From: Clostridia bacterium
GTDB taxonomy: Bacteria; Bacillota; Clostridia; Oscillospirales; Acutalibacteraceae
Direction of reading: 5' to 3'
Assembly (NCBI GenBank): GCA_017416285.1
Contig: JAFQCU010000001.1
Location: 26,556 to 90,555, forward strand
Length of the DNA: 64,000 nt
The notes under the pieces are model-generated. The model was not told the origin of the DNA. It saw only the letters and a list, made by a program, of their open reading frames with translations, and searched no databases. Both the position numbers and the translations under genes were made by a program. This document shows, piece by piece, positions 41,024 to 60,527 of the stretch. Position 1 is the stretch's first letter. Every line of letters begins with the position of its first letter.

Positions 41024-42682
41024 TTACTCCTTAACAGTTGAATAAACGGTTATGGAACCTGCGGGAATTGTATCCTGTAAAACTTTATCAACGTTTTTAA
41101 AGCCCTTATCGGCATCAATCATTTCAGCCGAGGTATTAGGTTTGATTGTAACGGGGTCAAAGCAATATCTGTACATATTCTTGCCGATACTCTTCTTGAA
41201 GTTGATGCTTATCTTTTGTTCCATAGAGGTTGAATTGACAACGATAACGTTTTGGTACTTTTTGCCGTCCTTTTCGTATTCAACCATTGAAAGACATACA
41301 CCGTTTTCTCCTTCAGCGTAATAAATCTTATTATTCGAGAATTCACCGGCAAATCTGGTAAGCAATGAATATCCGTAAAACAGCTTATAAGGAATTGCGC
41401 TGGTATAGAGCGAAGGAGCAGTACCTAAAATATGGATACCTTCTTTAAATTCGCCGCCTGTATCGGTTCTTGTAGGCCATACGATTTCAAACATTTGCCA
41501 ATAAATACAACTGTTAACTCCCGAATTCATTGCAGCAATTACCGTTTGAGCAATTTGCTGAGCATAGAAGTCGGTCTTTTGATTTTCGATAGCGTTACCG
41601 CCATACATCCATTCGTCAAACCAGAACGGCTTGCCGGTTTTCGAAATAATTCTTACGAATTCTTCAAAATAATATACCCAGAGGTCATAGTTATCATCGT
41701 AAACAGATGCAGCTGAATTGATGGTACCCGAACCGGGCCATGTAGGAATATACCAGTGGAAGGTATAAACGTCGATGTAATCGTCAATTCTGCTAATCCA
41801 CCAGTTGATTTCTTCCTCTAAGGTTTCACCCTCATAGAAATCTTTGCTTAAGCCGTACTGAGGACCGGTAAGCTTTACCATATCACGTAGACCCTCGTCC
41901 TTAAGCTTCTTATCGGTTGCCTGAATAACGTCAACGGTTACTTCCCAAGCATTCTTGGTTTCCTTTTTACCCGGAGCAACATAGAAGGTATATTCATTGA
42001 AGTGATAGGGTTCAGTAAACATTACGAAATATTCAATATCGTAACCACGTTTGATGATAACCTCTTCAATAAAGAGCTTAACCCAATCGGAGTACATATC
42101 GAGCATATCAGAATAAATGTTCAACTGACCGCTTATATACCAAGGAATAGTATATTTGAGGTGGTCTTGAGTGGTGGCATTGGCAATAGAGCCAATACCC
42201 CAACCCATATTAACTGCAACCTCAATATCACGTTCTTCCATAGCGTCAAGCCATTTATAGAACGCCTGCATTCTTTCGCTGTCCCAGTCGTAGATGACCT
42301 GGTCGCCGTTACGTTCTTTAAAAGCAAATCCGGCGTCCATATAAGAACGAACCATACCTACGTCCATATCGTCCATTCTTTTAAGTTCTTCTTCTATCTG
42401 AGCATCACTATAATTACGGCCGTACTCATCGGGCAAGAACATAAAGCCCTGGTTAATAGCGTTAACACCATTCCATTTAGAATTAAACACCTTATTGTTT
42501 TCAACATTAAGATTTAAAACCTCAGGATCAGATTCGGTAAATGTCTGTGTTTCATACACGGGGTCCTTGGCTGCAGAATTATCGGCAGGTACTTCTACCT
42601 TAGTTTCAACGTATTTGCCACAACCAGCAACACCTAAAACCATAACCAAAGCCAATACTAAAGCAATAATTTTTTTAGTCAT
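41024..42682 (-). CDS. Surface lipoprotein, TIM-barrel (clan GH-A-like) glycosidase candidate; family unassigned
   Basis: 552 aa. Lipobox LGVAGC. Motifs MFTEPYH and FWFDEWM. Paralogue of the 36166-38067 product. Confidence 0.45.
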   Translation of the reverse strand: MTKKIIALVLALVMVLGVAGCGKYVETKVEVPADNSAAKDPVYETQTFTESDPEVLNLNVENNKVFNSKWNGVNAINQGFMFLPDEYGRNYSDAQIEEELKRMDDMDVGMVRSYMDAGFAFKERNGDQVIYDWDSERMQAFYKWLDAMEERDIEVAVNMGWGIGSIANATTQDHLKYTIPWYISGQLNIYSDMLDMYSDWVKLFIEEVIIKRGYDIEYFVMFTEPYHFNEYTFYVAPGKKETKNAWEVTVDVIQATDKKLKDEGLRDMVKLTGPQYGLSKDFYEGETLEEEINWWISRIDDYIDVYTFHWYIPTWPGSGTINSAASVYDDNYDLWVYYFEEFVRIISKTGKPFWFDEWMYGGNAIENQKTDFYAQQIAQTVIAAMNSGVNSCIYWQMFEIVWPTRTDTGGEFKEGIHILGTAPSLYTSAIPYKLFYGYSLLTRFAGEFSNNKIYYAEGENGVCLSMVEYEKDGKKYQNVIVVNSTSMEQKISINFKKSIGKNMYRYCFDPVTIKPNTSAEMIDADKGFKNVDKVLQDTIPAGSITVYSTVKE

Positions 42683-45600: not shown

Positions 45601-47998
45601 GCTTAAGATAATTGTTATAATCATCTTTTTTAATAGTAAGACCGCTAAAGTTAGTTTCGGTACCTTCTACTACATTGCCTTTATCGTCAAGAAGCTTAAA
45701 GTTATCGATATAACCCTTAAAGCCGCCGTAAACGTAAAGAATGTGGTTACCGCTTTTAGCACCGTCAGCAATAGTGATTGTGCTTGTAGTGGTTTGCCAA
45801 GTGTTAAGTTGTAAATCAGGTTTCCACCAGTTACCTTGAGTTGAACCATTTGCCTGACCGCTTGCAGTACGGAAGTGGAAAAGATTAGAACTGTTAGGCA
45901 TCTTGATAGGATAAACGTCAAAGCTTACGGTATAGGTCTTACCTGCTTGAAGCTTGTTGTAATAGCTTTCCATACCCAATTCGTTGAACCAGAAGTTTCT
46001 GTTATCACTGCCGTTGTCAGAAACCTTTGTGGTATCGATAAGCATTACGTAGTTATCCTCAGCTTCGCTTGAACCGCCTAAGTCACCAATATTGGGAACG
46101 TCGCCAACAGTGATTTTTTCAAATTCACAGGTTGTACGACCTACGTATGAAGCGAAATCTAATTCAGTACCGTCTTGTGTGAGCTCAACGTTCCAAATAT
46201 AAAGCTCATCAGCACCATCTCTTTCTGCTAACCAAAACGAAGGAGAGTTCACACTTAATTCGAAGCTGTTTACACCTGCTTGAAGGTTTCCGGCTTCATT
46301 TCCATCACTAGAACCATAAACTTTAATTCTACCACTTTTAAGATAGTAGTCAAATTTTATAGTAGCTTTATACGCCTTACTGCTATCATAACTTGTGCGG
46401 AACGCTTCACCTGAATCGAATGTCATTTTATACGCAGGTGCAGTTAAATCAACTGCACTGCCGCTGCCGCTATTGCCTGAATTGTTGTCAGGTTCTTCAT
46501 AATTTGCACCGGGAATATCTGCGAAAGAAATTTCTTCAAATTCACAAGTGGTACGGTCGGTTCTGTTAGCCATCTTGGCAGGGTTGCCATCGGTAACAAT
46601 CTTAACGTTCCAAATATAAATTACTGCATTTTCGGTTGCAGTTAATTTAAGAGATTTGGTGTTTTTATCAGCTGTAAAGGTATGACTTCCAACACCGGGG
46701 GTAAGCTCGGTATCAAGGTTGCCAACGTTAGCTGAACCTGCAGTAACCTTGCCCTTTGAAAGATAATAATCAAAGCTATAAGTAATTTTATCGTTGCAAG
46801 GAGTATCAGAAGTTCTGAAAATTTCGTCCTTGTCCATAGTAAGTTTATATGCAGGATATGTTTTAGCCACAATTTCCTTAGGTAATTCAACAATCTTTGC
46901 ACCGTTACTTACATTATTAAGATGGGTTTCATCAATATTAAACGAGAATATTACAGTACCTGTCGCATCCTTAACCTTAAAGTTATCTAAATAACCTTTG
47001 AATGCAGAATTACCTTCGCTTATAATATGGAAATAAACACCTGCTAAATTTTCGGTTGTAGTAATTGGGAATGAATAATGTGTCCATTCATTTAACTTTG
47101 TAGGTGCTTCATTCCATACCTGACCGTTGGGAATTGCATGGTCGGTATTCATATGTGCTTTAACGCCGTTAAATACAACTCTATGACCTAAAGTAAGCGC
47201 ATAAACGTCAAACTCTACAGTATAGGTGTTGCCTTTCACAAGTGAAAGACCTTGCATACCAAGTGAGGTAAGCCAAAAGCTGTTGCTGCTTGAATTATCA
47301 AAGTAGGCAACATAGTCGGGTTCGCCGTTAAATGAGGGGCCTGTTGGCTTCATGCTGCCGCCTGCAAGCTGAGCAAGAGTACCGTATGCGAATACACCGC
47401 CGCCGCTGTAGCTGCCGCATGCTGTAGCCAAATCAAGATTAACCTTCTTGCCGTCTTCGCCGATAATTGAAAAATCTTCAATTAAAGCACTTGCAGAGGT
47501 GAAAGCTGAAAAATCAAGTTTATCACTTCCCTCTTTTGCGGTAAAGGTAAAATGGAAATTAGTCCATTCTTCAGCAGAAGCATTGTCATTAGTAGCAAAA
47601 GCTTCTACCGATGCTTCATTACCGCCGTATACCTTAATACCGAACATTTTGCCGTCGCTTGCCTTAGAAAGACCCATGGCATAAATATCCATATCTACGG
47701 TATACTTTTTGCCCGCTTGGAGCTGTAATCCGTTTACTGTAAGGGTTACAGTTTCTTCAGTAGCATTGCTTGCGTAAAAATAAAGTTTATCTGCATTATC
47801 TTGACCACCGATTGTAAAGTGGTCGTTACCGTCTACGATATCGCCGGCATCTTCGCCTTGGAAATCAATAATCTCGCCTTCTGCAGCATTTACGTTAAAA
47901 AGCAATGCGCTTAAAGGCAAAGAAGCCATCAAAATCGCAACGGCACATAAAACACTTATAATTTTTTTAGTGTTTAAATTCAAAAATTTAAAATTCAT
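42698..47998 (-). CDS. 1766-aa cell-surface multi-CBM-like glycan-binding protein with a C-terminal TM anchor and no recognisable catalytic domain
   Basis: Signal peptide aa 1-38. About 10 beta-sandwich modules end in [GW][YF][LIF]D[ND]F-type motifs, as in CBM4_9/22-like domains. One InlB-B/Listeria-Bacteroides-type repeat spans aa 1262-1327. TM helix (nt 42722-42805) plus a KKRKKN tail. No LPXTG. Confidence 0.7.
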   Translation of the reverse strand: MNFKFLNLNTKKIISVLCAVAILMASLPLSALLFNVNAAEGEIIDFQGEDAGDIVDGNDHFTIGGQDNADKLYFYASNATEETVTLTVNGLQLQAGKKYTVDMDIYAMGLSKASDGKMFGIKVYGGNEASVEAFATNDNASAEEWTNFHFTFTAKEGSDKLDFSAFTSASALIEDFSIIGEDGKKVNLDLATACGSYSGGGVFAYGTLAQLAGGSMKPTGPSFNGEPDYVAYFDNSSSNSFWLTSLGMQGLSLVKGNTYTVEFDVYALTLGHRVVFNGVKAHMNTDHAIPNGQVWNEAPTKLNEWTHYSFPITTTENLAGVYFHIISEGNSAFKGYLDNFKVKDATGTVIFSFNIDETHLNNVSNGAKIVELPKEIVAKTYPAYKLTMDKDEIFRTSDTPCNDKITYSFDYYLSKGKVTAGSANVGNLDTELTPGVGSHTFTADKNTKSLKLTATENAVIYIWNVKIVTDGNPAKMANRTDRTTCEFEEISFADIPGANYEEPDNNSGNSGSGSAVDLTAPAYKMTFDSGEAFRTSYDSSKAYKATIKFDYYLKSGRIKVYGSSDGNEAGNLQAGVNSFELSVNSPSFWLAERDGADELYIWNVELTQDGTELDFASYVGRTTCEFEKITVGDVPNIGDLGGSSEAEDNYVMLIDTTKVSDNGSDNRNFWFNELGMESYYNKLQAGKTYTVSFDVYPIKMPNSSNLFHFRTASGQANGSTQGNWWKPDLQLNTWQTTTSTITIADGAKSGNHILYVYGGFKGYIDNFKLLDDKGNVVEGTETNFSGLTIKKDDYNNYLKLEKEKTNNTTVKPSEPNYAIYIDNSANDIQSGQIWFNLLGVPEMSLTPGKTYTLKFDNYALNESFKGHCYVGVHNTGGGITGQNWWDTSDKLNEWATQSVNFTPTGDKALAYHTLYVGAGFKGYLDNFCVYDGDTEVARLTFDETNEGKTSAGATVVKLPAKIDPDYVPSGNLSGLEIAILKGKAGKDGASITLGGAKSPLTLEKNKTYKLIFKYYQANPTASGELNLFGVKFIESALGKANDVTWFKKNNADGWTEVKVVFSTGNITNASADWFQLVLNPDAWVFFDDFTVEETEIDNNKVVTKLTFDDKDDSIYPYFKQAEAVFEHSSEKGGTFKVVNATEYTNTSKNSNQTYVFKGIKMKSNTTYKVSLDYYVEAPFTDYAAAFGYDKKNLGMGSDTQWSFINNVGTRGWNTVTFTLTTGEVVPNAQYFKLVIYDVNDSSEPRTMWFDNFTLTEQYSIETSPNDATLGTVTKSFGVQAGDDARVVANAFEGATFEGWYEYGDLVSTNKTYRLNDISDNHKLEARFSGKAKPGTVIVQGFEDYELGDIGFEYYEIVNDPKNVLEGKQSLHAKPGKIMESIETSIFFPVVSNKEFQMKDDYTYDVYVWIKPAQPAENVYYYAFLGSNTRDQSDMLQSGEYAYIGVSTNIKPQKASALEENNGWYKYLLGTVTKDHTDKDGFCFQICKFHANRNEGASVDDIYIDRVELVERTPDFENLKYTEKFFNEVSNSHFEEEVTNENWGPLTDGATVEKVTNKEHDWQQNYQFKFDAAASNGKEYVRVIPLSKQNKNYTFAAWTKLSKGSDITVGLYSDGEYTVFENIKNGETGKLPMKDDGKWNRVNFSFNSGSSKDAYLVIKGTKGTLELDMVEIFVAERGFKVDPNTYGDYKTAFQETDPIAFPDKVITEEVLVEEGSEGTNNKKYLITREWVGPSVLVIVLSIIGGVLVVGAAAVVLIVILAKKRKKN
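46103..46858 (-). repeat. Diverged tandem duplication of a ~113-aa module inside the giant surface protein (aa 381-495 and 520-632)
   Basis: Both copies share AYK.T.D..E.FRTS, FDYYL, YIWNV and RTTCEFE.I. They are separated by an NSGNSGSGS linker. Confidence 0.6.
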
Positions 47999-48069: not shown

Positions 48070-49431
48070 TTATTTAACTGCTTTATTTGCCTTGTTTACT
48101 GCGAAATCAAAATTAGTTGCATAAGACTTAACCTTTGAAGTTACCTGTGCGGCATCGGTAAGCACGATGTTATGGCAAACGTTTGCAAAGTCAACCTGTG
48201 CACCGTTGTTTACAACACCTTCACTTATAGAAACACGCTTATCCATCTTAGCCAACTCATTAAAGGTCTTTTCAAGGTTTTTGTTAATAAAGTTGTCAGA
48301 CATACTATAGTTCTGCGGATCAAGGAAGTAACGCAAGAAGTGTGCTGCACCCTCAGAGTTTTTAGCACCCTTAAGTATGCCAAATAAGCAAGAGTCAACA
48401 AGTGCTACCTGCTTCTGACCCTTAGGCATGGGGAACGGAACTGCGTCAATAGTATCAGACATTTGACTAAACTTAGTATCAGATTCCTTAAACATAGCAT
48501 AAGTAATTACAGAGAACATTGCAGCTTCACCTGAACGGAAGTGAGGCACACCATAGGTATCGTCGCCCATAATCTTATACTTGGTTCTAAATTCGTTGTA
48601 ATATTTAATGTTATTCAAAAGCTTAGCATCAGAAAGGTTACTCTTAAACTTGGTGCCGTCATAGGTAATAAAGTCAGTACCGGCAGCCTGTAGCCAGTAT
48701 GTCATATAGCCTGTACCACGGTTTATATAGCCATAAACCTGAGCGCCGTTTTCCTTATAGGTCATAGCCTTTGCAGCATCAAGGAAGGTATCCCAATTCC
48801 AGTTGCCTGCTTCCCAAAGCTGGCGAGGTGTTTTAACGCCACGGTTTTTAAACATGGTTTCGTTAAAGTACATAGCAACGAATTCATTAGTATGACCGCC
48901 CACGATGTTTACACCGTAATATTTGCCGTTAATCTTCTGAGTATCCATCAATGCCTTATCCCAAGCGGGGTCGCTGAAGTCAAAGCCCTTAATATCATTT
49001 AAAGGCTGCATAATGCTTGTGGGTCTGCCGGGGAAGTTAATGTTATTAAACATTGCAATATCGTAACCTTCCTTAGCAGCCAAGGAAGCAGAAATAAGTT
49101 CAGCATAAACGCCACCTGCATTTGCCGCAAACTTAAACTGAACCTTCATACCGGTTTGCTTTTCAAAGCTTGCAACAACTGCTTTTTCATCATTTGTTAA
49201 CGGACGCCAGAAAAGCACCTTAACGGTTGTGCCCTTGAGGTTGGTGGGAACTTCAGTAACAATGTCCTGTGTGGCATTATTGCCTGTGCTACCGCCATTG
49301 TCGCCGCCATTTTCACCGGGAACTTCTTCATAATAAGAAGAGGTTGTGCCGCCGTTATCACAGCCTGCAAAGCAAAGAACCATTGCAAAAACCATAATAA
49401 GGGCTACGATTTTTTTAAGATCAAATTTCAT
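48070..49431 (-). CDS. CUT1-family ABC transporter substrate-binding lipoprotein
   Basis: Signal/lipobox MKFDLKKIVALIMVFAMVLCFAGC, a Gly/Ser-rich tether, and SBP family-1 length. Start is ambiguous (ATG 49431 preferred; 49443 and 49452 are possible). Confidence 0.8.
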   Translation of the reverse strand: MKFDLKKIVALIMVFAMVLCFAGCDNGGTTSSYYEEVPGENGGDNGGSTGNNATQDIVTEVPTNLKGTTVKVLFWRPLTNDEKAVVASFEKQTGMKVQFKFAANAGGVYAELISASLAAKEGYDIAMFNNINFPGRPTSIMQPLNDIKGFDFSDPAWDKALMDTQKINGKYYGVNIVGGHTNEFVAMYFNETMFKNRGVKTPRQLWEAGNWNWDTFLDAAKAMTYKENGAQVYGYINRGTGYMTYWLQAAGTDFITYDGTKFKSNLSDAKLLNNIKYYNEFRTKYKIMGDDTYGVPHFRSGEAAMFSVITYAMFKESDTKFSQMSDTIDAVPFPMPKGQKQVALVDSCLFGILKGAKNSEGAAHFLRYFLDPQNYSMSDNFINKNLEKTFNELAKMDKRVSISEGVVNNGAQVDFANVCHNIVLTDAAQVTSKVKSYATNFDFAVNKANKAVK

Positions 49432-49482
49432 TTCAAAATACATCCCTTTCAAAATTTATATAATAAATCCTTAATGGATAAA

Positions 49483-50460
49483 TTAACCAACAATACCAAC
49501 GCTGTCAATGCTCTTAATAAACTTCTTTTGAAGGATAAGATACATTATTAAAACAGGAAGAATAAACAACATACAGCTTGCCATAGCAACACCTGTGTGT
49601 GAATTTATAGCATCGCCGCCACGTAGCTTTATTAATTCCATAATGCCTGATAAAACCACGGCTAGAGGTTGGTTTTCATTGAAATAAAGTGCTGTGAGAT
49701 AATATTCATTCCAGTGCCAAATTATTGAAAGAATGGTTACTGTCAAAATTGCAACGCTAGAAGACGGTACAATAATTCTTACGAAGGTACCGATAGGACC
49801 TGCACCATCTATCCAAGCAGCTTCTTCCAATTCTTTAGGAATACCCTTAAGGAACTGGATATAAATCATAATAAACAAGCCCGACTGATAACCAACACCA
49901 AAAATTGAAGGTAGATAGAAAGTAAACGGAGTGTTTATAAGATTTATAGTTAGGTCTTTTCCGATAAGGTCACCTATTATTGAGGTAATACCGAAAAAGT
50001 CGAAATTACGGAAATTTACATACTGTGCCAAGAAGGTCATTCTTACGGGAACCAAAATTGTTATAAGCAAAAGTGCATAAAGAATTTTGCGTTCGGGAAA
50101 TTTAAACCTTGCAAAGCCGTAAGCCGCAACGCCGCAGGCGGCCACCTCAAGAAAGGCGCTTAATACCATAATTGATACGGTATTAAGGAAGGTTTTTAAA
50201 TAATCCATAACATGAAATGCATCAATATAGTTTTGGTAGAAGAAGGTGGTCGGTATCCACGAAACGCTTGTATTCATAAAGTCGGATTGGTTTTTAAGCG
50301 AGTTCGAGATTATTTGAAAAAGCGGTGATAATACCGTAAAGCCAACCGCAATCAGCATTGCATAGCGGAATAAGGAAACTGCTACTTTTGATGCAACCTT
50401 TTTATATTCGTAATTCGATTTAAGGTTCTTTTTTAATGTTAAGCCTTTCAAATGTGCCAC
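49483..50460 (-). CDS. Carbohydrate ABC transporter permease (MalG-like)
   Basis: 325 aa, 6 TM, EAA loop PKELEEAAWIDGAGPIGTF. Confidence 0.85.
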   Translation of the reverse strand: MAHLKGLTLKKNLKSNYEYKKVASKVAVSLFRYAMLIAVGFTVLSPLFQIISNSLKNQSDFMNTSVSWIPTTFFYQNYIDAFHVMDYLKTFLNTVSIMVLSAFLEVAACGVAAYGFARFKFPERKILYALLLITILVPVRMTFLAQYVNFRNFDFFGITSIIGDLIGKDLTINLINTPFTFYLPSIFGVGYQSGLFIMIYIQFLKGIPKELEEAAWIDGAGPIGTFVRIIVPSSSVAILTVTILSIIWHWNEYYLTALYFNENQPLAVVLSGIMELIKLRGGDAINSHTGVAMASCMLFILPVLIMYLILQKKFIKSIDSVGIVG

Positions 50461-50464: not shown

Positions 50465-51367
50465 TTAATTCCATTTCTTCATAAGAATTCGGTTATACGC
50501 TAAAAGAATTAACGCACCGACAGCGCCAACCACAACAAAGTAAGCCCAAAGTATTGCTGCACTTTGGTCATATACGCTGTTTTTACTTATAAGGTCATAT
50601 GCCTGCTTCATTATTGGGTTGTCAAATGCCGTAAACAGGTCAACAATAGTGTAAACCAACACAAGGAAGGTTACGTTGCCAAGCATTGGGAAGGTAACAA
50701 ACCAAAATTCTTCCCAAGTGGTTGCGCCTTCGATTTTTGATACCTCATAAAGCTGGTCAGGAATTGACTGAAGACCCGCAACAAACAAAAGTATCTGAAT
50801 ACCGCAGCTCCACACAAGGTTAAATACCCTTGCAATATAATCAGACAAAAGCTCGGTTATTGACTGCGGAAGACCAAGGTTTATAAGCAACTCGTCAAAC
50901 CTTATGCCTGAATAGGATTCGGTTTCGCCCATAGACGTGCTGAGTGCCGCACCTTCTTGAAGCGCAGCGCCTGTTACGAACTGCATTACAACACCTGTTG
51001 CAATAATTACGGGAAGGAAAAATACCGCACGGGCAAAAATTCTTCCCCTGAATTTTTGATTAAGTATAATAGCAAAAATTAAACTTAAAGCTACAATAAT
51101 CGGTAATGAGTATACAAAAGATGTAACCGCATCCTTAATGTTATCCATAAAGTTGGGATCATCATTTATAAGATACTTAAAATGCTCAAAACCGACAAAC
51201 GATAACATTTTATCGTTAACAAGTGAAACGTTACAAAATGCATAAGCAATTGAACTAAACAGCGGAACCAAAAAGAAAAGTAATAAACCGATAGTCCAAG
51301 GTAGAACGAACATTCTGCCATAACGAACCTTTAAACGCTCAATACCGGTTACTTTTTTATTACGCAT
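50465..51367 (-). CDS. Carbohydrate ABC transporter permease (MalF-like)
   Basis: 300 aa, EAA-type loop LYEVSKIEGATTWEEFWFVTFP. Confidence 0.85.
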   Translation of the reverse strand: MRNKKVTGIERLKVRYGRMFVLPWTIGLLLFFLVPLFSSIAYAFCNVSLVNDKMLSFVGFEHFKYLINDDPNFMDNIKDAVTSFVYSLPIIVALSLIFAIILNQKFRGRIFARAVFFLPVIIATGVVMQFVTGAALQEGAALSTSMGETESYSGIRFDELLINLGLPQSITELLSDYIARVFNLVWSCGIQILLFVAGLQSIPDQLYEVSKIEGATTWEEFWFVTFPMLGNVTFLVLVYTIVDLFTAFDNPIMKQAYDLISKNSVYDQSAAILWAYFVVVGAVGALILLAYNRILMKKWN

Positions 51368-51408: not shown

Positions 51409-53607
51409 TTAACGGTATACAAAGCTTTCAGCCTCAACCACACCAAAGGGGGTTTCAACCGCCTTATCAGTGTAATTAACAATAACCGAGGTACCGTTTT
51501 CAAAATCGGTCTGGTTAACACCGTCAGAAAGTATTGTATGCTTTTTAATTGTTGTACCCGAAACCTTTTCTAAAAGGGTGGACAACTCAGTGTAATTTTC
51601 AAAAATGTTTTCCTTATAATCAGAATAAACGCTTTTTGCCAAAACGCTGTCATTCAAGCGGAATTTTGCATTAAAGTTATTGCTTACTGTGTAAAGCAAG
51701 CCACAGCCCGTTTCAGCCGAGCTTAAAACTTCCAGTCTGGAATTTTTAGCTGTATTAACCGATTCGGAAGCTATGGGAACAAGTCCCTTAAATACCATAC
51801 GATAGAAGGGTACCTGAGCATCAAGCGTCGTAAAGCCCGAATGTGTAGAAGGTGTTGCAATTATATGTGATGAATAAACCGCTGCATAAGCATTTGCACT
51901 TTCAGTTAAAAGTCCGGTTTTGCCCTTGCCTGAAAGTATGGCCGAAACATCACTGTCAAGGTTGCCCTTTGAATAATATTTGGGACTTTCATAATCGGAA
52001 TATGCCATCGAACCGAGAGTTGAAAGCGATAAACCGAAAATTTCGTTATCAGTTGTGGTTTTCAAAGCCTTATTAAAGGCATCGCCGATTCTATCCCTTG
52101 CAAGAAGGTTATAACGGCCCTTCGCCTCATTAATGTTAGAAGCAGCAACCGCATAATAATACTGATAAGCTGTACCGCCGTTTTCAGCCTTTGCTGAATC
52201 GGCAATTTTTGTAAAGCCAACACCGGAAGAAGCAAAACTTAAAAGGTCAAAGTCAAAGTAAACGTCGCAAAGACCGCCAAGAGTTTTAACATCGCTCCAC
52301 TTACCAAGCTTTTTATTAATCTTAAAGCCGCCACCGATTTTACCTACTTCCAAGCCTGTTGCACCAAAGCCCTTTAGCTGAACAACCGGCTTAACACCTG
52401 TGTTTTTAGTAATATCAGCCACAATTTCCTGTGCCTGTTTTAAGGTTGTAGCGCTTTCAAGGGTTTTATAAGGAACGCCCACAAAGGATTTTTCAGTCAT
52501 AGCGCCGCCTAAAACCTGTAAATAAATAGCAGAATCCTTACCGTTATATTTGGTATTAAATTTTTCGGAAATATAATCACGGTAAAGCTTTGCCATACCC
52601 GAATATCCCGAATCTTCACCACTAAGCGGATAGTAAGCTACTGTACAGTTGCCGTCTACAAGACCATCACTGTAGGCATTTACATAGTTATAAAAACCAC
52701 TTGCCATTGCAACCTTTTCGGTGTTACGGCCACGAACCGAGAATACAGCACGTGCACCCGAATAACCGATTGTGCTATCCCCTGCTGTTGCCTTCACGTC
52801 ACAGGAAGCCGCACCCTCTTCAATTATTGCAAAGAGTGAATTTTCACCACGTGTAACACCAAATACAGGAAGTGAGGCATTATAAATGTTTTCGCTTATA
52901 TGTTCGGTAAAAATAGCTAAATCGTTACCGTATACCGTTTCCTGATAACCACGTTCAGCACCATCACGCTCATCGGCATACATTAAAGCGCCGCTGCCAG
53001 AAGGAACAAAAACATAGCTGTCTTTTTCATCACTTGCAGGAATTGCTGCAAGGAAGGGTGCAATTTCCACCTGATAAACCTTATTGGTATTTTCCAAAAT
53101 ACCCAAGGTATCAACCGTTACAGTAAAATGGTCATCATAAAGCTTGTAAATAAGCGGAACAGAAATTTCAACATTGTTGAAGAAATAACCAATTTGCACA
53201 CCGTTTTCGATTTGCTTTACAGTTATAAAGCCATCGTCCTGTACGGCGGCACCGTTAACGGTTTTTAGTGAATTATTGGGTGGGGTTGTATAAGTAACAA
53301 TTAGAGGAGAGTTAAATAAAACCTCTGCTCTGGCACCGGCTTCAATACCGTTATAAAAATCATTAGGTATTGTAGACCAGATATAGCCATTCTTTTTATT
53401 GACAACCACCACACAGGATTTTTCATTATCCCAACGCATTTCAAGATTATCGTTTTCAGCAACAACCGTGCTTTCAAGTGTGTTGACACGAATATTTGAT
53501 ATATACTTGCCAACCGCACGGGGCTTTTGCATGCCGCAGGCAGTAAGGCTTAAAAGCATCAAGGATAAAACCATTAAAACTGAAATTATTCGTTTTGTTT
53601 TTAACAC
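51409..53607 (-). CDS. 732-aa lipoprotein, DUF5696-like, function unknown
   Basis: GTG start with SD AGGGGG. Lipobox LSLTAC. No motif I can assign. The DUF label comes from memory of similar genes found next to Yip1/ABC genes. Confidence 0.5.
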   Translation of the reverse strand: MLKTKRIISVLMVLSLMLLSLTACGMQKPRAVGKYISNIRVNTLESTVVAENDNLEMRWDNEKSCVVVVNKKNGYIWSTIPNDFYNGIEAGARAEVLFNSPLIVTYTTPPNNSLKTVNGAAVQDDGFITVKQIENGVQIGYFFNNVEISVPLIYKLYDDHFTVTVDTLGILENTNKVYQVEIAPFLAAIPASDEKDSYVFVPSGSGALMYADERDGAERGYQETVYGNDLAIFTEHISENIYNASLPVFGVTRGENSLFAIIEEGAASCDVKATAGDSTIGYSGARAVFSVRGRNTEKVAMASGFYNYVNAYSDGLVDGNCTVAYYPLSGEDSGYSGMAKLYRDYISEKFNTKYNGKDSAIYLQVLGGAMTEKSFVGVPYKTLESATTLKQAQEIVADITKNTGVKPVVQLKGFGATGLEVGKIGGGFKINKKLGKWSDVKTLGGLCDVYFDFDLLSFASSGVGFTKIADSAKAENGGTAYQYYYAVAASNINEAKGRYNLLARDRIGDAFNKALKTTTDNEIFGLSLSTLGSMAYSDYESPKYYSKGNLDSDVSAILSGKGKTGLLTESANAYAAVYSSHIIATPSTHSGFTTLDAQVPFYRMVFKGLVPIASESVNTAKNSRLEVLSSAETGCGLLYTVSNNFNAKFRLNDSVLAKSVYSDYKENIFENYTELSTLLEKVSGTTIKKHTILSDGVNQTDFENGTSVIVNYTDKAVETPFGVVEAESFVYR

Positions 53608-53618: not shown

Positions 53619-55742
53619 CTAACGATAGAAAATTTCGGTAAATATAGAACCGATGAAATCAAATAACTGCTGGAACAAGATAAACAACATAAATATAATG
53701 AATACAACCAACAACATACCAAGAACAGTCAATATAGTTGTTATAAGGAATTTGAAGAAGTCATATTCATGAATTGCCATAATACCAACACAAAGAACTA
53801 CTGCGGCAAGTATATGACAAACCACTGAAATTACAGTAAGAATTGCTGCTTCTTCAGGAATTAACATATTTGTTAAAGCTAAATTAAGTACTGAATTTAA
53901 AATTTCAGGTATTAAAGCGAAGCAGGTAACAATAAAGATTTCTTTAAGCTTACCCTTACCTTCTGCCAACACGCAAACGCCCCAGTTTACAATTACAAAA
54001 AGAACTGCAACGCCTACGCTACCAAGCAAGGTTTCAAATGAATTATATTCAGCAGGTTCAAATATTTTAAAGGTAAAACCACTGTAAATATCACATAAAA
54101 CCTTAGAAATATAGAACAGTAGAAGTGCACCGATAGCAACAACCACCGAGCCCTCGCCCTTATTCTTTAATCTGTAGAATGTGTCAAACGGATGAATCAC
54201 AGAATTAAGTGCAAATACTACACCATTTGTGCTCAGCTTCTTTTCAGCGTTTTTGCTCTTGATGATGTACCAAACAACACCGCCAATAAGCGCAGCGCCT
54301 AAAATAAGCATCCACCAAATGTTTTTGGAAATAAATTCACCACGTAACTGTTCGAAAGCTATAGCATAATCAGATTGACTAAAGCCAATTTTTGAATATT
54401 CAATAGCAGCTTCATAATCTTCATTAAGAAGTGCAGCTTTTGAAAGACCACGGTAAGCAAGAAGGTTGTTTTTATCTTGCTTTAATACTTCTTCCCAAAG
54501 CGCAACAGAATCGTTATACTTACCATCTAAGGTAAGAATTTGAGCTTGCTTGTAAAGCTTGCCATAATCAGTAAGCTTAAACGAGGTTACACTTGCATCA
54601 AGCGAATCAAGCACATAAAGCATATCGCCGTGTACCGCAACTGATTCAGGTCTTGTAAATGTGCCGTCTTGCATACCTGAACCAAAACCGCCACCGAATA
54701 CTGCAAAAGAATTACACTTATTGTCATAAACAAAAATATGACCGTAGGTTGTATCAACCGCATAAACGAATCCGTCGTCATCTACACAAAGCTTTTTAAA
54801 GTTGGTCATTATGGGGTGACCCATATCGTTACGATAATCAGATTCATCGGCAAAATTCATTGTATCCGAACCATCACCTTCAGAATCTTTCAAAATGTTA
54901 ATACCGGCGGGATTAAGTCGTCTGATTTGACCTGTACCAACATCCCAAATACTGTCAGTTAAACCAGTTAAGGTATAAATAAAACCACTTTTATCTATAT
55001 CCATACTGATAAACTGATAAGGTAATTTTTGCTGACTGTTAGCACGCTTTGCTTCAGTCTGGGTGAGTCTGTCCCAAAGCTTTCCAAAAATGTCCACCAC
55101 AGACGATTTTACGCTGTTTGCACCGTAGAAGCCAAGGAATTCACCCTGATCGGAATAAACAAGCGCACCATAATATGAACCACTGCTGAGTACATATATA
55201 TAATCACGTGAGTCGGTCAACACCTTTATAGGTGCATAGTTAAAGTCATCAGGAATAACTGTAGCATCGGGTAAGCCGATAATACGCTTAAGGCTTCCGT
55301 CGGGGTTTAAAACAATTATCCTTTGACCGTTTGTGTCAGCGATATAAATGGTATTATCTTCTTTAAGATATATACCGCTGGCACCGCTAAAGTTTACTTC
55401 TTCACCATTTTGTACAGGTGAAGATATAACTCTTAATAACTTCATTTGACTGTCAACAACAACTATTCTACTGTTGTCACCATCAAGTATGTAAAGATTT
55501 CCGTCCTTATCACAATCCAAATCTGTCGGCATTGAAAAAGCGTCAATTCCGAGATCATAGCCACTAACCTTGTCTACTACCTCGAAAACCTCACGAATCT
55601 CAACCGCTTCCCTTTTTTCACCCTTTTGCCAATAAGCATAAGTGTTATAAGGAACAGTATTGGCTTCGGCTGCCGAAACGGTAGGCACTACCATAAAAGC
55701 AGCAAGAACAAAAACCATCAAGAGCACTAAATATTTTTTCAC
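53619..55742 (-). CDS. Signal peptide + NHL-type beta-propeller + TPR + TM + Yip1-like polytopic membrane domain fusion protein
   Basis: GTG start with SD AAAGGAG. Repeated DG.LY[IV].D...RI.V blades span aa ~60-390. TPR-like helices span aa ~395-460. TM at aa 475-494. A 5-TM Yip1-like domain spans aa ~510-707. Confidence 0.55.
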   Translation of the reverse strand: MKKYLVLLMVFVLAAFMVVPTVSAAEANTVPYNTYAYWQKGEKREAVEIREVFEVVDKVSGYDLGIDAFSMPTDLDCDKDGNLYILDGDNSRIVVVDSQMKLLRVISSPVQNGEEVNFSGASGIYLKEDNTIYIADTNGQRIIVLNPDGSLKRIIGLPDATVIPDDFNYAPIKVLTDSRDYIYVLSSGSYYGALVYSDQGEFLGFYGANSVKSSVVDIFGKLWDRLTQTEAKRANSQQKLPYQFISMDIDKSGFIYTLTGLTDSIWDVGTGQIRRLNPAGINILKDSEGDGSDTMNFADESDYRNDMGHPIMTNFKKLCVDDDGFVYAVDTTYGHIFVYDNKCNSFAVFGGGFGSGMQDGTFTRPESVAVHGDMLYVLDSLDASVTSFKLTDYGKLYKQAQILTLDGKYNDSVALWEEVLKQDKNNLLAYRGLSKAALLNEDYEAAIEYSKIGFSQSDYAIAFEQLRGEFISKNIWWMLILGAALIGGVVWYIIKSKNAEKKLSTNGVVFALNSVIHPFDTFYRLKNKGEGSVVVAIGALLLFYISKVLCDIYSGFTFKIFEPAEYNSFETLLGSVGVAVLFVIVNWGVCVLAEGKGKLKEIFIVTCFALIPEILNSVLNLALTNMLIPEEAAILTVISVVCHILAAVVLCVGIMAIHEYDFFKFLITTILTVLGMLLVVFIIFMLFILFQQLFDFIGSIFTEIFYR

Positions 55743-55770: not shown

Positions 55771-56637
55771 TTATCCCTTAATACCTGCGCTACCCATTGT
55801 CTCCATAACGCTTCCCTGTGAAACCATGTACACTATAATAGGTGGAATAAGAAGAATAACCGTAGCCGCCATTGCGCTGCCCGAACGTGCTATACCACCT
55901 GCAGAAATCGTTGACATTATATTAGGTAACATTTTAAGTTCTTCACTAAAAATTGTTCCGGCAGGCTGCATTGACCAAATATCTCTGAATGCGAACAAGG
56001 CCAATGTGAGCCATGCGGGTTTCATTATAGGAAGTGCAATTTGATAATAAATCCTGAAAATGCCTGCGCCGTCAATTCTTCCGGCTTCCAGCAATGCATC
56101 AGGTATACTACTGTCAATAAACTGCTTAACTAGGAAAACACCCAATGTAGAAGGAAGATATGGCAAAATATAAACCCAATACGTATCAATGATATTTAAC
56201 TTTGAGAAAATAACATATTGAGGAATTGCCAATGTGTATGCATTATACAAGAGTGCAAACTGAATCAACATAAATAAGGTTTGGCTACCTTTAAATTTAA
56301 CCTTTGCAATAACAAACGCAGCCATAGAAGCAATAAAAATATGTAAAACTGTAGTTGAAACACTTACAAATAAGCTGTTAAAAATATATCTTGAAAGCGG
56401 AACACTCAAGTTAGATAAAAGCTTAGGTAATGCTGTGTAATTGTCTATGACAGGTCTTGTTACAAAGAAACGAGGAGGAAATATAAGTATTTCCTCAAGC
56501 GGCTTGAGTGATGTACATACGGTATAAATCATAGGTAAAACCGAAAACAAACCGAAAAGTATTAAAAAGAAGAAATAGAAGAAGTTACCCCAAGATGAAC
56601 GGGTATATCTTCTATATTGAGCTTTTACATTTTTCAT
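55771..56637 (-). CDS. Carbohydrate ABC transporter permease
   Basis: 288 aa, EAA loop PDALLEAGRIDGAGIFRIYYQIALP. SD GGAGGT. Confidence 0.85.
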   Translation of the reverse strand: MKNVKAQYRRYTRSSWGNFFYFFFLILFGLFSVLPMIYTVCTSLKPLEEILIFPPRFFVTRPVIDNYTALPKLLSNLSVPLSRYIFNSLFVSVSTTVLHIFIASMAAFVIAKVKFKGSQTLFMLIQFALLYNAYTLAIPQYVIFSKLNIIDTYWVYILPYLPSTLGVFLVKQFIDSSIPDALLEAGRIDGAGIFRIYYQIALPIMKPAWLTLALFAFRDIWSMQPAGTIFSEELKMLPNIMSTISAGGIARSGSAMAATVILLIPPIIVYMVSQGSVMETMGSAGIKG

Positions 56638-56651: not shown

Positions 56652-57554
56652 TTATCTGCCAATGGCGTCAACCACTTTGCCAATAATGACACGGCTTACA
56701 GCCATCATAGCAAAGAGGAATACTGAAAGTGCTGCTGCATAGCCCATCTCGTATCGGCTTGTACCAACGTCTTGAATTAAGGTTACAAGTGTATCTACTG
56801 AATAGTTAACACTTGGGAAGCCTGCAAGAGCAGTTACTACCGCACCAATTGAGAACGAGCTTTGAATCTGCATTACAGCGCCAAACAAAAGTATTGGCTT
56901 CATAGAAGGAAGAGTTATGTACCAAAGCTCTGCCCATCTGTTTCTGATACCATCGATACAGCCGGCTTCATACATTTCGGGGTTAACATTTTGAAGACCC
57001 GAAATATTGGAAAGGAATGAAATACCCATACTCATCCAAAGCTGAACAACAACAATGATTACCATTACATAATTGGCATCTTTAAACCATTGAATAGGTT
57101 CAGAAACAACACCCAATGAAAGCAATGCACTATTAATGTAACCATAGCTATCACCGCTAAAGAGCACCTGCCAAATAAAATAAACGTTAGAGGAAAGTGC
57201 CGGAGCGTAGAAAAGGAATGATAAAATTGTACGTGCTGTTCGGTTAAGCTCGTTAATCATCCAAGCGAGAACAAAAGAAAGCATATAACCGATAGGACCC
57301 GTAATTATTGCTAGAACTAAGGTGTTACGAAGCACATTAGGGAACATATCATCGGATGAGAACATTTTAATATAGTTCGAAATTCCGTTGAATTTAGGAG
57401 CCGATATCATATCATAGGTTGTGAAGCTAAGCACAACAGATGATAAAATCGGAAGAACTGTAAAAACAAAGAACAATATTAAGAACGGAGATAGCATAAT
57501 AAGACCGGTACGAACTTCGCTACTTCCTCGTGTTTTTAAAGATTTAACTTTCAC
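56652..57554 (-). CDS. Carbohydrate ABC transporter permease
   Basis: 300 aa, EAA loop PEMYEAGCIDGIRNRWAELWYITLP. Confidence 0.85.
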   Translation of the reverse strand: MKVKSLKTRGSSEVRTGLIMLSPFLILFFVFTVLPILSSVVLSFTTYDMISAPKFNGISNYIKMFSSDDMFPNVLRNTLVLAIITGPIGYMLSFVLAWMINELNRTARTILSFLFYAPALSSNVYFIWQVLFSGDSYGYINSALLSLGVVSEPIQWFKDANYVMVIIVVVQLWMSMGISFLSNISGLQNVNPEMYEAGCIDGIRNRWAELWYITLPSMKPILLFGAVMQIQSSFSIGAVVTALAGFPSVNYSVDTLVTLIQDVGTSRYEMGYAAALSVFLFAMMAVSRVIIGKVVDAIGR

Positions 57555-57575: not shown

Positions 57576-60425
57576 TTATTCATACTGTGCACGTTTTTCA
57601 GCAATTTCGGTATCCGCAACCTTATCCCACTTGATAAGCTCTTCGTGAATACCCTTACCGCTTACAACGTTCCAGAAAGCCTGGTCAACAACACGGGGAA
57701 TATAATATCCACCGGGAACCTCAGGCATTTCCTGCACCCAACGCCACTGTTCTTCAATGATTTCAAAATCGCCACGATTCCAAGAAAGCTTAGAAAGTGC
57801 TTCAACGTTTGAAGTCATATTTCTACCAGTTGTGCCAAGTATGGATTCAATATTTTGTGAATACTTGAGTTGTGCTTCATAAGATGTCCACCACTTAAGG
57901 AACTTCCAAGCACCCTCTATATTGTCGCTATCTTTCAAAATCGCACAACCACTGCCTGCACCTGCAAGTGAACGGTTTATTTCACCGTTTTCATCCTTAA
58001 AGCCAGGTATTGGAGCAATGCCCCAAAGACCACGAATTTCAGAAGCCGCAGCACTTATGGTGTTGTACTGAGTTACAGATTGAATTGCCAAAGGCATTGT
58101 ACCTGTACGGAAGCGGTTATAGAAGTCATATGTTTTATCGAAACTGTATTTATTATAAAAATCAGTCCACATAGTAAAGGTATTAACCGCATCTTCCGAA
58201 GTTAAGTTAATGCTCTCAAGTTTATCATCATAAAGACTTATTCCCTGCTGCATTAAAAGTGTGGGGAAAATGTTGAGTGCGCCAAGACCTTGGTTAACCA
58301 AATTCATATCGGTAATTTGTGTGTATGGTAAGCCAACACGCATGTTGTTTCGCATAATTATTGCAGACGCTGCAATAAAATCATCCCATGTTTGTGGCAC
58401 CTCAATACCAAGGTCATCAAGAATATCCTTGCGATAATACATTATCGAGAAGGTTTGAGTATCCGGTAAAGCGTAAACCCCACCTTTATATGTATAAGGA
58501 ACGGTGGCACTTGGCATAAAGCGCTTGGTAACCTCTTCAAAATCTTCAAATTGACTAAGGTCATATAAGCCGCCACGCATTGCAAGGTTAACCGGCTCAG
58601 TACGTGACATATGTAAGTAACAGTCAGGTCCATTGCCCGAAAGCATACCTTGAATAATTGTGGCGTTTGTCATTTTAATGTCAACGCCAACGCCGTACTT
58701 TGCAGAAAAATCACTTTGTGCAAGATAGTTAAGAACCTGAACCTGATCACGACCCCAGTTAACCCAAAGTGTGATTTTGTCAGTTCCTACATCACCTGAA
58801 ATATTATTGTAATCCGACATAAACGAAACAAAGAATTTCTTTATTCCGAAAAGCAAACTTTCAAAGAAGCCTGCACCAAGATGCTCTGCCTTCTTTTCGG
58901 GAGCAGTGATATAAATAGCATCGATATCAAGCGGCATACCAATTATTTCGTAAAGCCATGCACTCATGCTGGAATAATTATCGTAATAGTTTGATTTGTA
59001 GATTTGTGCCTGATACTTATACTCAAGCATACGACCAATTACTGCCGACATGTTCTTAAGTGTAGAAGTGTTGGACGAACCGCCCATGTCACTAAGTTCA
59101 TCAGCTTCTTCAACAAGCTCATCAAGCACCTTGCGGCAATCAGTAAGTCTTTGTTCCAAATTTGGTATCTGGGTAAATAATGAATAGTCACGATTAGAGT
59201 CGGGTGTTTCACCGGTTATCATTACTATTTCACGATAAATATTACCTAGTTCATAAATTTGCTTTTTAAGTTCAACAGCAAAGTTAGAAAGCGAACCCAA
59301 ATTAACCTCTAACGAAATTGTGCGTTCACCTTTAGGAAGATAAATGAGGTAAGGCTCGTCATCATCCTTATTAAAGGATTTGCGCTTCCAGCTGTTGCAA
59401 TACGCAAAATCTATCTGCGAAGCTTCTTTAAAAGGAATTTCACCATCTACACGTAATACACGATATGAACTTCCGTTTACGATGTAGCTTTGTTGATAAG
59501 CAAAGGTAATAGCATAAAGTCCGTCCTCAGGAACGTCAACCTTCCATGTAATACGGTCGCCTGCGCCACTCCAGTTGTTACCACCAATATAGTTTACCTT
59601 GCTTTTAGTAGCACTGTAGGGATAAACCTTTGCACTAGTAGAATCTGACTGAGAAATAAGATTGTTAGCAGATTTCAGATATGCCTTCTCGCCCTGAATA
59701 TTAATCTGTGCGCCATTATATTTTTTATAACCGTTTTGCTTATAAATCTTCAAAACTTCTTCATATGATAAGATTTTTTCCTCGGCACAAAGCTTTAATT
59801 CGCTAATAGCAATCGGGTCACTGCAATCATAAATAGTAATCGTATGCTCACCCTTTGTTAAAGCAAAGAGATAAGGCTTTGAATTAAGACCCTCAGAATC
59901 GGAAAAACGATTTGTCTGCCAAGCAAATAATTCTTTCTGTTCGGGAGCAAATTCGTTTCCTATACCGTCCTTTCTAACATCGCCGTCATCGACGAAGATA
60001 CGAGGCAAGGATATATTATTAACGCCATCAAAGGGTTCCTCACCGTCAACCAACATACTGAATTCGATTGCTTCAGTATTAGTTTCAAGAGCGTAATAAT
60101 TAATTGAAACGTTATAAAGGCCGTCTTTCAAAACCTTAAATTTAAAGGTAAGCGACCCTTCTCCATTTCCCCATTTTAAAACATTGGATTCGCCTTCAAA
60201 AGTATCAGCCTTTTCAATGGCAGCCTCACCGCCGATTTTAACATCGGCAATAACAGCAGCTATCTCATCAACGTCCGTGTTCAGATCTTTATGAGCTTTT
60301 AAATACTCACTGTAATCCGAAGTTTCAACGACAGAATCCTCCGTATCAACTTCAGCAGCAAAACAAGTATAACCTGAACCCGCTATAATTATGAAAGCAA
60401 TTAATAATGACAGGATTTTTTTCAA
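57576..60425 (-). CDS. 949-aa extracellular solute-binding protein with two N-terminal CBM6/35-like modules and a helical linker
   Basis: TTG start with SD AAGGGGA. Signal peptide without a lipobox. Two ~135-aa beta-sandwich-like modules lie in aa ~75-375. The C-terminal ~410 aa is SBP family-1-like. First gene of the array. Confidence 0.65.
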   Translation of the reverse strand: MKKILSLLIAFIIIAGSGYTCFAAEVDTEDSVVETSDYSEYLKAHKDLNTDVDEIAAVIADVKIGGEAAIEKADTFEGESNVLKWGNGEGSLTFKFKVLKDGLYNVSINYYALETNTEAIEFSMLVDGEEPFDGVNNISLPRIFVDDGDVRKDGIGNEFAPEQKELFAWQTNRFSDSEGLNSKPYLFALTKGEHTITIYDCSDPIAISELKLCAEEKILSYEEVLKIYKQNGYKKYNGAQINIQGEKAYLKSANNLISQSDSTSAKVYPYSATKSKVNYIGGNNWSGAGDRITWKVDVPEDGLYAITFAYQQSYIVNGSSYRVLRVDGEIPFKEASQIDFAYCNSWKRKSFNKDDDEPYLIYLPKGERTISLEVNLGSLSNFAVELKKQIYELGNIYREIVMITGETPDSNRDYSLFTQIPNLEQRLTDCRKVLDELVEEADELSDMGGSSNTSTLKNMSAVIGRMLEYKYQAQIYKSNYYDNYSSMSAWLYEIIGMPLDIDAIYITAPEKKAEHLGAGFFESLLFGIKKFFVSFMSDYNNISGDVGTDKITLWVNWGRDQVQVLNYLAQSDFSAKYGVGVDIKMTNATIIQGMLSGNGPDCYLHMSRTEPVNLAMRGGLYDLSQFEDFEEVTKRFMPSATVPYTYKGGVYALPDTQTFSIMYYRKDILDDLGIEVPQTWDDFIAASAIIMRNNMRVGLPYTQITDMNLVNQGLGALNIFPTLLMQQGISLYDDKLESINLTSEDAVNTFTMWTDFYNKYSFDKTYDFYNRFRTGTMPLAIQSVTQYNTISAAASEIRGLWGIAPIPGFKDENGEINRSLAGAGSGCAILKDSDNIEGAWKFLKWWTSYEAQLKYSQNIESILGTTGRNMTSNVEALSKLSWNRGDFEIIEEQWRWVQEMPEVPGGYYIPRVVDQAFWNVVSGKGIHEELIKWDKVADTEIAEKRAQYE

Positions 60426-60498: not shown

Positions 60499-60527
60499 AT
60501 TATAAATTATTTGTTTTTTTTAGACAA
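60499..60527 (-). promoter_or_regulatory. Putative sigma-A promoter of the 49-kb minus-strand array
   Basis: On the minus strand: TTGTCT (60522-60527), 17-nt spacer, TATAAT (60499-60504). About 70 nt upstream of the TTG start. Confidence 0.45.

Follow-up and report, generated by a model that had tools for sequence, protein, structure and literature searches.

An NHL-propeller, TPR and Yip1-domain protein encoded between the permease pairs of two CUT1 importers in Clostridia

The stretch of DNA considered here, called the window, comprises 64,000 nucleotides of contig JAFQCU010000001.1 from a Clostridia bacterium of the family Acutalibacteraceae. An open reading frame (ORF) on its minus strand, 53619..55742, is the subject of this analysis and is referred to as the target. 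It starts with GTG, carries a Shine-Dalgarno sequence, GAAAGGAG, as ribosome-binding site 8 nt upstream of the start codon, and encodes a protein of 707 residues (aa) that joins an NHL beta-propeller to a membrane domain of the Yip1 family. GenBank has this protein with 100% identity from a metagenome-assembled genome (MAG), labelled ‘YIP1 family protein [Clostridia bacterium]’, and the translation of the target contains all four NHL repeat strings cited in the initial annotation of this DNA. The gene lies in a cassette with the genes of two ATP-binding cassette (ABC) importers of the CUT1 type, each with a pair of permeases and a substrate-binding protein (SBP), and of a surface lipoprotein with a DUF5696 domain. 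All cassette genes of the window are on the minus strand, 4-41 nt apart, and are given below in the order of transcription.

60499..60527, minus strand: promoter-like site TTGTCT-17-TATAAT ahead of the long SBP gene; no site on the minus strand fits the consensus better (10/12), this fit being the sole evidence
57576..60425, minus strand: long SBP of CUT1 type, 949 aa (SBP_bac_8, E 1e-22; sugar SBPs in the PDB, E 1e-10)
56652..57554, minus strand: permease A1, MalF-like, BPD_transp_1 by Pfam; 57-78% identical across cassettes
55771..56637, minus strand: permease A2, MalG-like, BPD_transp_1 by Pfam, below the cut-off in the window copy
53619..55742, minus strand: target, 707 aa, with signal peptide, NHL, TPR, transmembrane and Yip1 parts (Pfam, profile search, AlphaFold2, Foldseek)
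51409..53607, minus strand: DUF5696 lipoprotein with a GH129/GH101-like fold (Pfam E 1e-123, AlphaFold2, Foldseek)
50465..51367, minus strand: permease B1, BPD_transp_1 (Pfam)
49483..50460, minus strand: permease B2, BPD_transp_1 (Pfam)
48070..49452, minus strand: short SBP lipoprotein of importer B, 460 aa, lipobox FAGC (phmmer)

Two permease pairs, a DUF5696-like lipoprotein and the 949-aa SBP had been named as neighbours in the initial annotation, and the domain searches agree with these assignments. The target itself is neither an SBP, nor a MalF/MalG-type permease, nor an ATPase according to Pfam and NCBIfam, and is thus an extra component of the cassette. A strong terminator of the upstream gene is located at 61581-61546. 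Together with the promoter-like site at 60527-60499, it suggests that the cassette likely starts its own transcript, both elements being consensus matches only.

The same annotation, which gave no strand, had read the target as a signal peptide, an NHL propeller of about six blades, a TPR-like segment, a single transmembrane (TM) helix and a Yip1-like domain with five TM helices. This architecture holds in Pfam, in a profile search of the PDB, in an AlphaFold2 (AF2) model and in Foldseek, and profile searches uphold the NHL and the Yip1 assignments alike. The parts of the protein map to the DNA as follows.

55671..55742, minus strand: signal peptide, aa 1-24, of signal peptidase I type, ending in TVSA before AE (sequence, hydropathy, AF2)
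54573..55646, minus strand: NHL beta-propeller, aa 33-390, predicted extracellular (Pfam, PDB profile search, AF2, Foldseek)
54378..54572, minus strand: TPR-like helical hairpins, aa 391-455 (family profile, AF2)
54255..54323, minus strand: TM1, aa 474-496, predicted anchor of the ectodomain (hydropathy; split genes end here)
53622..54203, minus strand: Yip1 domain, aa 514-707, five TM helices (Pfam, invariant columns, AF2)

Pfam places Yip1 (PF04893) on residues 514-682 with a score of 44.3 bits (cut-off 28.6) in a match that spans positions 3-171 of the 173 in the profile, and NHL (PF01436) is found with 40 bits against a cut-off of 20. The TPR_16 match of the target alone is below the threshold (21 vs 32.7 bits), and relatives of the target match TPR_19, TPR_11 and TPR_2. 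A family profile, made from an alignment of 21 members, was searched against the PDB sequences. It found the ‘Pizza’ NHL propellers derived from PknD (E 1e-36), PknD itself (E 5e-17) and the NHL domains of TRIM, Brat and Thin, as well as consensus TPR proteins that match residues 402-455 with E-values of 1e-22 to 1e-9. Membership in the SMP-30/gluconolactonase family (SGL) was rejected, as the score of 21.5 bits, across 37 residues only, is under the cut-off of 26.3. NCBIfam membership was likewise rejected, all matches being far below their cut-offs (ScyF NHL, 52 vs 350 bits).

The AF2 model of the target has a mean predicted local distance difference test score (pLDDT) of 80.3 and a predicted TM-score (pTM) of 0.72. 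It consists of a signal helix (2-15), a beta-propeller (34-390), four TPR-type helices (392-453), a single unbroken helix (456-499) that contains TM1, and five Yip1 TM helices (533-553, 568-592, 599-624, 629-658 and 662-706). The model has 26 strands, of which those at 34-60 may form an extra hairpin added to a six-blade propeller; the number of blades is deduced from this strand count and from the top structural matches, which are six-bladed. Among the PDB structures, Foldseek ranks the six-bladed NHL domains of Thin, TRIM71, TRIM2, Brat and PknD first (E 1e-14 to 1e-10, Foldseek ‘target TM’ 0.72-0.79). The seven-bladed Vgb lyase comes below them, with a TM-score of 0.6 and 8-10% identity. 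The top 50 Foldseek matches in the PDB are all propellers, with no solved structure for the Yip1 part. Two insertions in the propeller are conserved, one at aa 210-236, which is modelled as helical with low confidence, and another at aa 280-312.

The TPR segment is short, with about two repeats and a capping helix that runs on into the membrane. As this stalk is one rigid helix leading into TM1, the ectodomain is predicted to sit just above the membrane. Hydropathy and charge counts show that the loop 497-532 contains 6 lysine or arginine residues among its 36 residues. Such a loop is expected to be cytoplasmic, and therefore the ectodomain and the C-terminus of the target are both predicted to be outside. 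The Yip1 domain carries an HPF motif (H517, P518, F519) on the predicted cytoplasmic side, and the most conserved stretch of the whole family, GKGKxKEIFIVTC (aa 595-607), falls in its cytoplasm-proximal loop and TM4. The profiles and the model together establish the target as an exported, membrane-anchored protein with a predicted extracellular NHL propeller.

The Yip1 part (aa 470-707) was compared with 1.84 billion representative sequences, and 1352 clusters at 50% identity were found at E <= 1e-3, with 901 of them at <= 1e-10. The best 150 of these matches are mostly of about 700 aa; a minority is 200-270 aa long and a few reach 820-1030 aa. The long forms P0256, P0291, P0345, P0346 and P0348 have the same architecture as the target. 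In P0256, the one compared in detail, the surplus is an insertion of about 270 aa in the first propeller blade with no Pfam match. Every short form that could be placed lies in the cassette, directly 3' of a separate NHL or NHL-TPR gene. In Butyrivibrio and at the loci L072, L074, L075 and L076, the separate genes encode an NHL-TPR-TM protein of about 480-498 aa and a Yip1 protein of about 206-234 aa; short forms also occur at L076/L077. The two genes of a split pair either share 4 nt or are separated by a spacer of 11 nt. They occupy the same position in the cassette and are broken just past TM1, at the following coordinates.

L070, 11923-14018: split pair
L072, 6509-8705: split pair
L074/L075, 6511-8639: split pair
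L076, 6559-8630: split pair

A frameshift artefact as the origin of the Butyrivibrio split was considered and rejected, since the same split is present in independent contigs and in a 6.3-Mb assembly (L075 is the 6.3-Mb scaffold of GCA_002884445.1). The two parts are thus encoded either as one gene or as two translationally coupled genes with the break after TM1. It follows that the anchored ectodomain and the Yip1 bundle are two modules, which are argued to work as a complex.

The target family comprises at least 389 clusters at 90% identity, and among the 120 matches listed, those of about 700 aa all carry Yip1, mostly along with NHL. Loci were collected with a pattern taken from the most conserved stretch (KEIFIVTCY-like, aa 600-609), which gave 69 loci in 60 species-representative genomes. 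The hosts are Acutalibacteraceae, Oscillospiraceae and ‘Ruminococcaceae’ MAGs from the gut of ruminants, horse, rabbit and human. The cassette is also carried by Lachnospirales (Butyrivibrio) and Paenibacillus and, at 25-28% identity, by Acholeplasmataceae, Izimaplasma and other Mollicutes. Annotated isolates with the same block include Butyrivibrio fibrisolvens D1, where it is on plasmid pNP243 (WAA20_RS20505-20550), and Paenibacillus cellulosilyticus KACC 14175, where it is again on a plasmid (HUB94_RS00490-00525).

When seven neighbours from the window were searched by tblastn, it was observed that order and strand are constant: long SBP, permease A1, permease A2, target, DUF5696, permease B1, permease B2 and, often, the short SBP. 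Permease A2 lies directly upstream of the target in 60/61 loci, a count made up of the 54 scored by the script and six overlaps that arose from the ORF-start rule, with L059 as the exception. DUF5696 is directly downstream in 59/61 loci, and all six partners are found in 43 of the 44 loci with enough flank. Orthologues are thus far from randomly placed with respect to ABC transporter genes, in keeping with the association that had been proposed from the window alone. Look-ups seeded with DUF5696 returned the same cassette in 3/3 cases. Two variants of the order were recorded. L059 (8760-21396) has a permuted order, with a short SBP-like gene, NHL-Yip1, DUF5696, the permease B pair, the long SBP and the permease A pair, and in L072 a permease pair stands 5' of the long SBP.

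At least seven genomes contain 2-4 copies of the cassette; the MAG JAZQHX01 has four (L014, L031, L058, L082) and SVPF01 has three (L008, L021, L022). Pairwise distances of the seven cassette proteins, calculated for 48 cassettes, are correlated with r 0.87-0.96, and therefore the block is inherited and duplicated as a whole. The choice of a physical partner by the mirror-tree approach was given up, as whole-block inheritance dominates these uniform correlations, and the small differences among them were not used. The mean distances are listed below.

Permease A pair: 0.55-0.57, the slowest-evolving part
Permease B pair: 0.89-0.91
Long SBP: 0.99
Target: 1.08 (propeller 1.07, TPR 0.94, Yip1 1.06)
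DUF5696: 1.41

A tblastn search of all other ORFs of the window against the related loci returned no further conserved neighbour. The cassette is therefore the conserved unit, and not the rhamnose/fucose locus that surrounds it. The carbohydrate-active enzymes (CAZymes) flanking the cassette vary by copy and belong to the glycoside hydrolase (GH) families GH16 (three times), GH130, GH32/GH43, GH38 and GH43, with GH29, GH36 and GH78 in the window. Adjacent regulators are also variable: a LacI-type gene is present in L081, and the window has none next to the cassette, its AraC gene being 15 kb off. Judged by gene order and co-divergence, the target is an obligatory member of a block that also comprises a pair of CUT1 importers and the GH129-like lipoprotein of the cell surface, and the genomic evidence strongly supports a functional link between the target gene and the ABC importers.

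The DUF5696 neighbour has a lipobox, LTAC, with an invariant cysteine (Cys24). Its AF2 model (pLDDT 87.6, pTM 0.89) shows an N-terminal beta-sandwich and a (beta/alpha)8 barrel, as in GH129 and GH101. Over the full length, Foldseek aligns it with the Zobellia 3,6-anhydro-D-galactosidase ZgGH129 (5opq, E 4e-32, TM-score 0.61-0.69) and the Bifidobacterium NagBb (5wzr, E 1e-24), both of GH129, and then with GH101 followed by GH31, GH36 and GH97. A sequence profile also reaches ZgGH129 (E 8.6e-9), a weak but ordered similarity. However, the protein is only 12-13% identical to these enzymes and belongs to a separate Pfam family (PF18952) with no assigned activity, for which a literature search found no paper. 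Aspartate is conserved at D229 (66/66), at D538 (63/66) and, in most members, at 596 or 598. These residues are compatible with a retaining glycosidase, catalytic equivalences aside, as the HMMER alignment with ZgGH129 spans residues 44-403 and 668-735, outside the catalytic strands of the barrel. Going by spacing, D538 might be guessed to be the nucleophile.

The long SBP, which every cassette with sufficient flank contains, has its SBP domain at the C-terminus (about 550-931), preceded by an extension of about 550 aa with weak CBM35 and Golvesin_C matches only. Its signal peptide in the window has no canonical lipobox. The short SBP has no Pfam match, and phmmer relates it to the arabino-oligosaccharide SBP AbnE (6rjy, E 1e-8). 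Among homologues, a lipobox is present in 29/33 short SBPs and in 46/62 DUF5696 proteins, as against 1/56 long SBPs, most of which have an AxA-type signal peptide; the DUF5696 copies of Mollicutes and Paenibacillus have a TM-like anchor at the N-terminus. The SBPs of monoderm bacteria normally carry a lipid anchor. To be retained at the cell, a long SBP that almost never has a lipobox would therefore depend on a signal left uncleaved or on another protein as partner. No ABC ATPase gene occurs in the 64-kb window. In Paenibacillus, a UgpC/MsmX-type ATPase is encoded at L071 5888-6997, directly 5' of the long SBP. The window and the majority of the other loci have no such gene nearby, which implies that they draw on a shared ATPase from another part of the genome.

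Public databases label the cassette proteins only as ‘YIP1 family protein’, ‘NHL repeat-containing protein’ or ‘DUF5696 domain-containing protein’, and no paper was found on the architecture of the target or on the cassette. The closest known parallel is YknW of Bacillus subtilis and B. amyloliquefaciens. It is described as a Yip1-family fourth component of the YknWXYZ ABC exporter, which modulates the assembly of the extracytoplasmic YknX with the YknYZ ABC permease (PMC4887032, PMC4338810). The initial annotation had named YknW as an accessory subunit of the YknXYZ system, which agrees with this description, and as the only precedent, which is not quite the case. In bacteriocin clusters, too, Yip1 genes are repeatedly found next to genes for ABC exporters of the HlyD/MacB type, as in the case of BawG, which has 5 TM helices and is encoded beside HlyD and ABC genes (PMC10707071). 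Like the target, YknW and BawG have a Yip1-family polytopic domain encoded within an ABC transporter operon, a likeness that for YknW is one of family, context and description. They differ in that their partners are MacB-type exporters and a membrane fusion protein (MFP), whereas those of the target are two type I CUT1 importers with SBPs. Neither an MFP nor a MacB-type gene is found in the cassette in the window, in the related loci or in the Butyrivibrio and Paenibacillus isolates. Moreover, YknW and BawG consist of about 220 aa and of Yip1 only, whereas the target adds about 470 aa of extracellular NHL propeller and TPR, along with an extra TM helix.

Another likeness is to PknD of Mycobacterium tuberculosis (1rwi/1rwl) and the ‘Pizza’ designs, the best profile matches of the target; in PknD, too, a single TM helix carries a six-bladed NHL propeller that faces the cell exterior (Foldseek E 5e-10 against the target). 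In PknD, however, the propeller is joined to a cytoplasmic Ser/Thr kinase, whereas in the target it is joined to TPR and Yip1 with no cytoplasmic domain and has the two conserved insertions described above. The eukaryotic Yip1/YIPF proteins of the Golgi share PF04893, five TM helices and a cytoplasmic N-terminus of the domain, which is predicted in the target. They serve in Rab and vesicle traffic with no link to ABC transporters, and the homology with the target is only remote. In function, the cassette can be compared to the Sus-like polysaccharide utilisation loci (PULs) of Bacteroidota, of which SusE and SusF are the surface glycan-binding proteins. Both are modular, multi-copy cassettes with a transporter, surface-tethered binding proteins, a surface enzyme and variable adjoining CAZymes. 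This is an analogy with no homology; the hosts of the present cassette are monoderm and use ABC importers instead of the TonB-dependent SusC.

The explanation that we tentatively prefer, at a little short of an even chance, is that the target is a dedicated, non-transporting scaffold subunit, with the Yip1 bundle on the permeases and the propeller and TPR holding extracellular partners. The Yip1 bundle would pack laterally against the TM domains of the ABC permeases, akin to YknW on its exporter. The propeller and TPR would form a platform that keeps extracellular components at the transporter, the likeliest being the long SBP and/or DUF5696. Capture, trimming and import of the glycan would then be physically coupled, and direct binding of a glycan by the propeller would be compatible with such a role. 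The Yip1 part is argued to be more than an anchor because a single helix, TM1, would be enough to hold the ectodomain and yet no member lacks the five extra ones; it also evolves no faster than the propeller (1.06 vs 1.07) and holds the most conserved motif.

Several points weigh against the scaffold. Physical association of the target with the transporter is a proposal, and its precedent, YknW, is part of a MacB-type exporter that works with an MFP, not of a type I importer. CUT1 importers are not known to have any accessory TM subunit. The uniformly high mirror-tree correlations single out no partner for the target. In Mollicutes and Paenibacillus, the N-terminus of the long SBP resembles an uncleaved anchor, and therefore a tether may not always be required; cleavage or retention of this signal peptide is itself a sequence prediction. 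NHL propellers can also be enzymes.

It is unlikely, but deserves the most serious consideration among the rivals, that the target is instead a surface receptor whose propeller binds the glycan, be it a polysaccharide or a large oligosaccharide, and hands it on, as SusE/F-type proteins would, to the SBPs or DUF5696, with Yip1 mainly as an anchor. This overlaps with the scaffold and differs only in the ligand of the ectodomain. An ectodomain that is predicted to be extracellular and close to the membrane would suit a receptor, as would the divergence of the propeller, which is about that of the substrate-binding protein (1.07 vs 0.99) and correlates best with the long SBP (r 0.91). The cassette copies next to different CAZymes fit a specificity that shifts with the cassette, and the insertion of about 270 aa in blade 1 of some members is also in its favour. 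However, the structural neighbours of the propeller include no carbohydrate-binding NHL domain, their ligands being RNA, protein or unknown. Pfam detects no carbohydrate-binding module (CBM) signature in the target, and the conserved residues of the propeller, in our reading, occupy structural positions of the NHL repeat. A mere anchoring role would also leave the five conserved extra TM helices unexplained.

A catalytic propeller is very improbable. It would modify the glycan before import, with lyase, lactonase or esterase activity comparable to that of SMP-30/gluconolactonase, virginiamycin B lyase or PAL, at a locus that handles decorated deoxy-sugar glycans and has a SASA esterase. The sub-threshold SGL match, a single JGI annotation as ‘sugar lactone lactonase YvrE’ and the presence of Vgb lyase among the Foldseek matches speak for it. 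Nevertheless, the best matches in both sequence and structure are non-enzymatic NHL domains, with Vgb lower, and the invariant columns of the alignment, as we read them, show no evident metal-binding or catalytic constellation. Just as improbable, or slightly more so, is a sensor, in which the propeller would perceive the substrate, as has been proposed for the PknD domain, and Yip1 would relay this within the membrane; the receiver would be a histidine kinase or the transporter, and uptake would be gated. PknD supplies a homologous extracellular sensor domain; furthermore, regulatory genes lie 5' of some cassettes, namely a histidine kinase and a response regulator in Butyrivibrio and a response regulator of AraC type at L074/L075. 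Such a role is disfavoured because the target has no cytoplasmic output domain, the loop of about 36 residues being its sole sizeable cytoplasmic segment, and because no regulator is conserved next to the cassette. The gene, throughout the loci, is also placed within a structural operon, between transporter genes. That the target is an unrelated passenger, caught between two ABC operons by chance, is hardly credible, given that the gene order is kept across Bacillota classes and Mollicutes and that the block is duplicated whole with co-diverging parts.

A broader proposal, which goes beyond the scaffold subunit and is rather doubtful, takes the eight-gene block as the core of an unrecognised machine of monoderm bacteria for glycan capture, trimming and import. 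It would be a functional counterpart of the Sus-like systems, begin with a long SBP that bears CBMs, and have been multiplied and given new specificities many times within single genomes, with the target as the organiser joining two importers and their surface partners into a supercomplex. If so, CUT1 importers would have in the target an accessory transmembrane subunit, the first to be described. If it is a subunit of the transporter, the role of bacterial Yip1 proteins would widen from ABC exporters to importers, and DUF5696 would gain a testable assignment as a glycosidase. Among Yip1 proteins that accompany ABC systems, the target stands out by its extracellular propeller and by the importers beside it. 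In the gut, much of the degradation of fibre and host glycans is due to Oscillospirales and Lachnospirales, and it is poorly understood how large glycans are held and fed into ABC importers where there is no outer membrane or Sus-like apparatus. The cassette is a good entry point to this question, as it is widespread and multi-copy and always contains two proteins whose function is unknown. Two of its hosts, Butyrivibrio fibrisolvens D1 and Paenibacillus cellulosilyticus, are cultivable. Cassette-aware names could replace ‘YIP1 family protein’ and ‘DUF5696 domain-containing protein’.

Apart from the cassette, the DNA between about 11 kb and the window end at 64 kb is a region for glycan utilisation and deoxy-sugar catabolism, with most genes on the minus strand. 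Its genes encode a GH29 fucosidase, fucose isomerase, GH36-type enzymes, a GH78 rhamnosidase, RhaA, an FGGY-family sugar kinase, class II aldolases, a GH94-like protein, the SASA esterase, a glycyl-radical enzyme with its activase and the AraC regulator. The glycyl-radical genes, at 26939-30351 (minus strand), comprise the enzyme itself (PFL-like plus Gly_radical, 661 aa), a DUF4867 protein (244 aa) and a radical-SAM activase (259 aa), which may form a module for the dehydration of deoxy-sugar-derived diols; in the ORF list, 27702-28436 and 28366-30351 have 71 nt in common.

Next to the cassette, on its 3' side, there is often a gene for a very large secreted protein. In the window it is encoded at 42698-47998 (minus strand) and has 1766 aa with four CBM_4_9 stretches, and others are found at L080 14758-18555 (1265 aa) and L081 15045-19661 (1538 aa); tblastn detected no mutual homology among these three. 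Two further minus-strand ORFs, 41024-42682 (552 aa) and 61661-63997 (778 aa), have no or only sub-threshold Pfam matches (a GH42M-like trimerisation domain). The latter comes as close as 3 nt to the end of the window, and the start given for it is a mechanical assignment.

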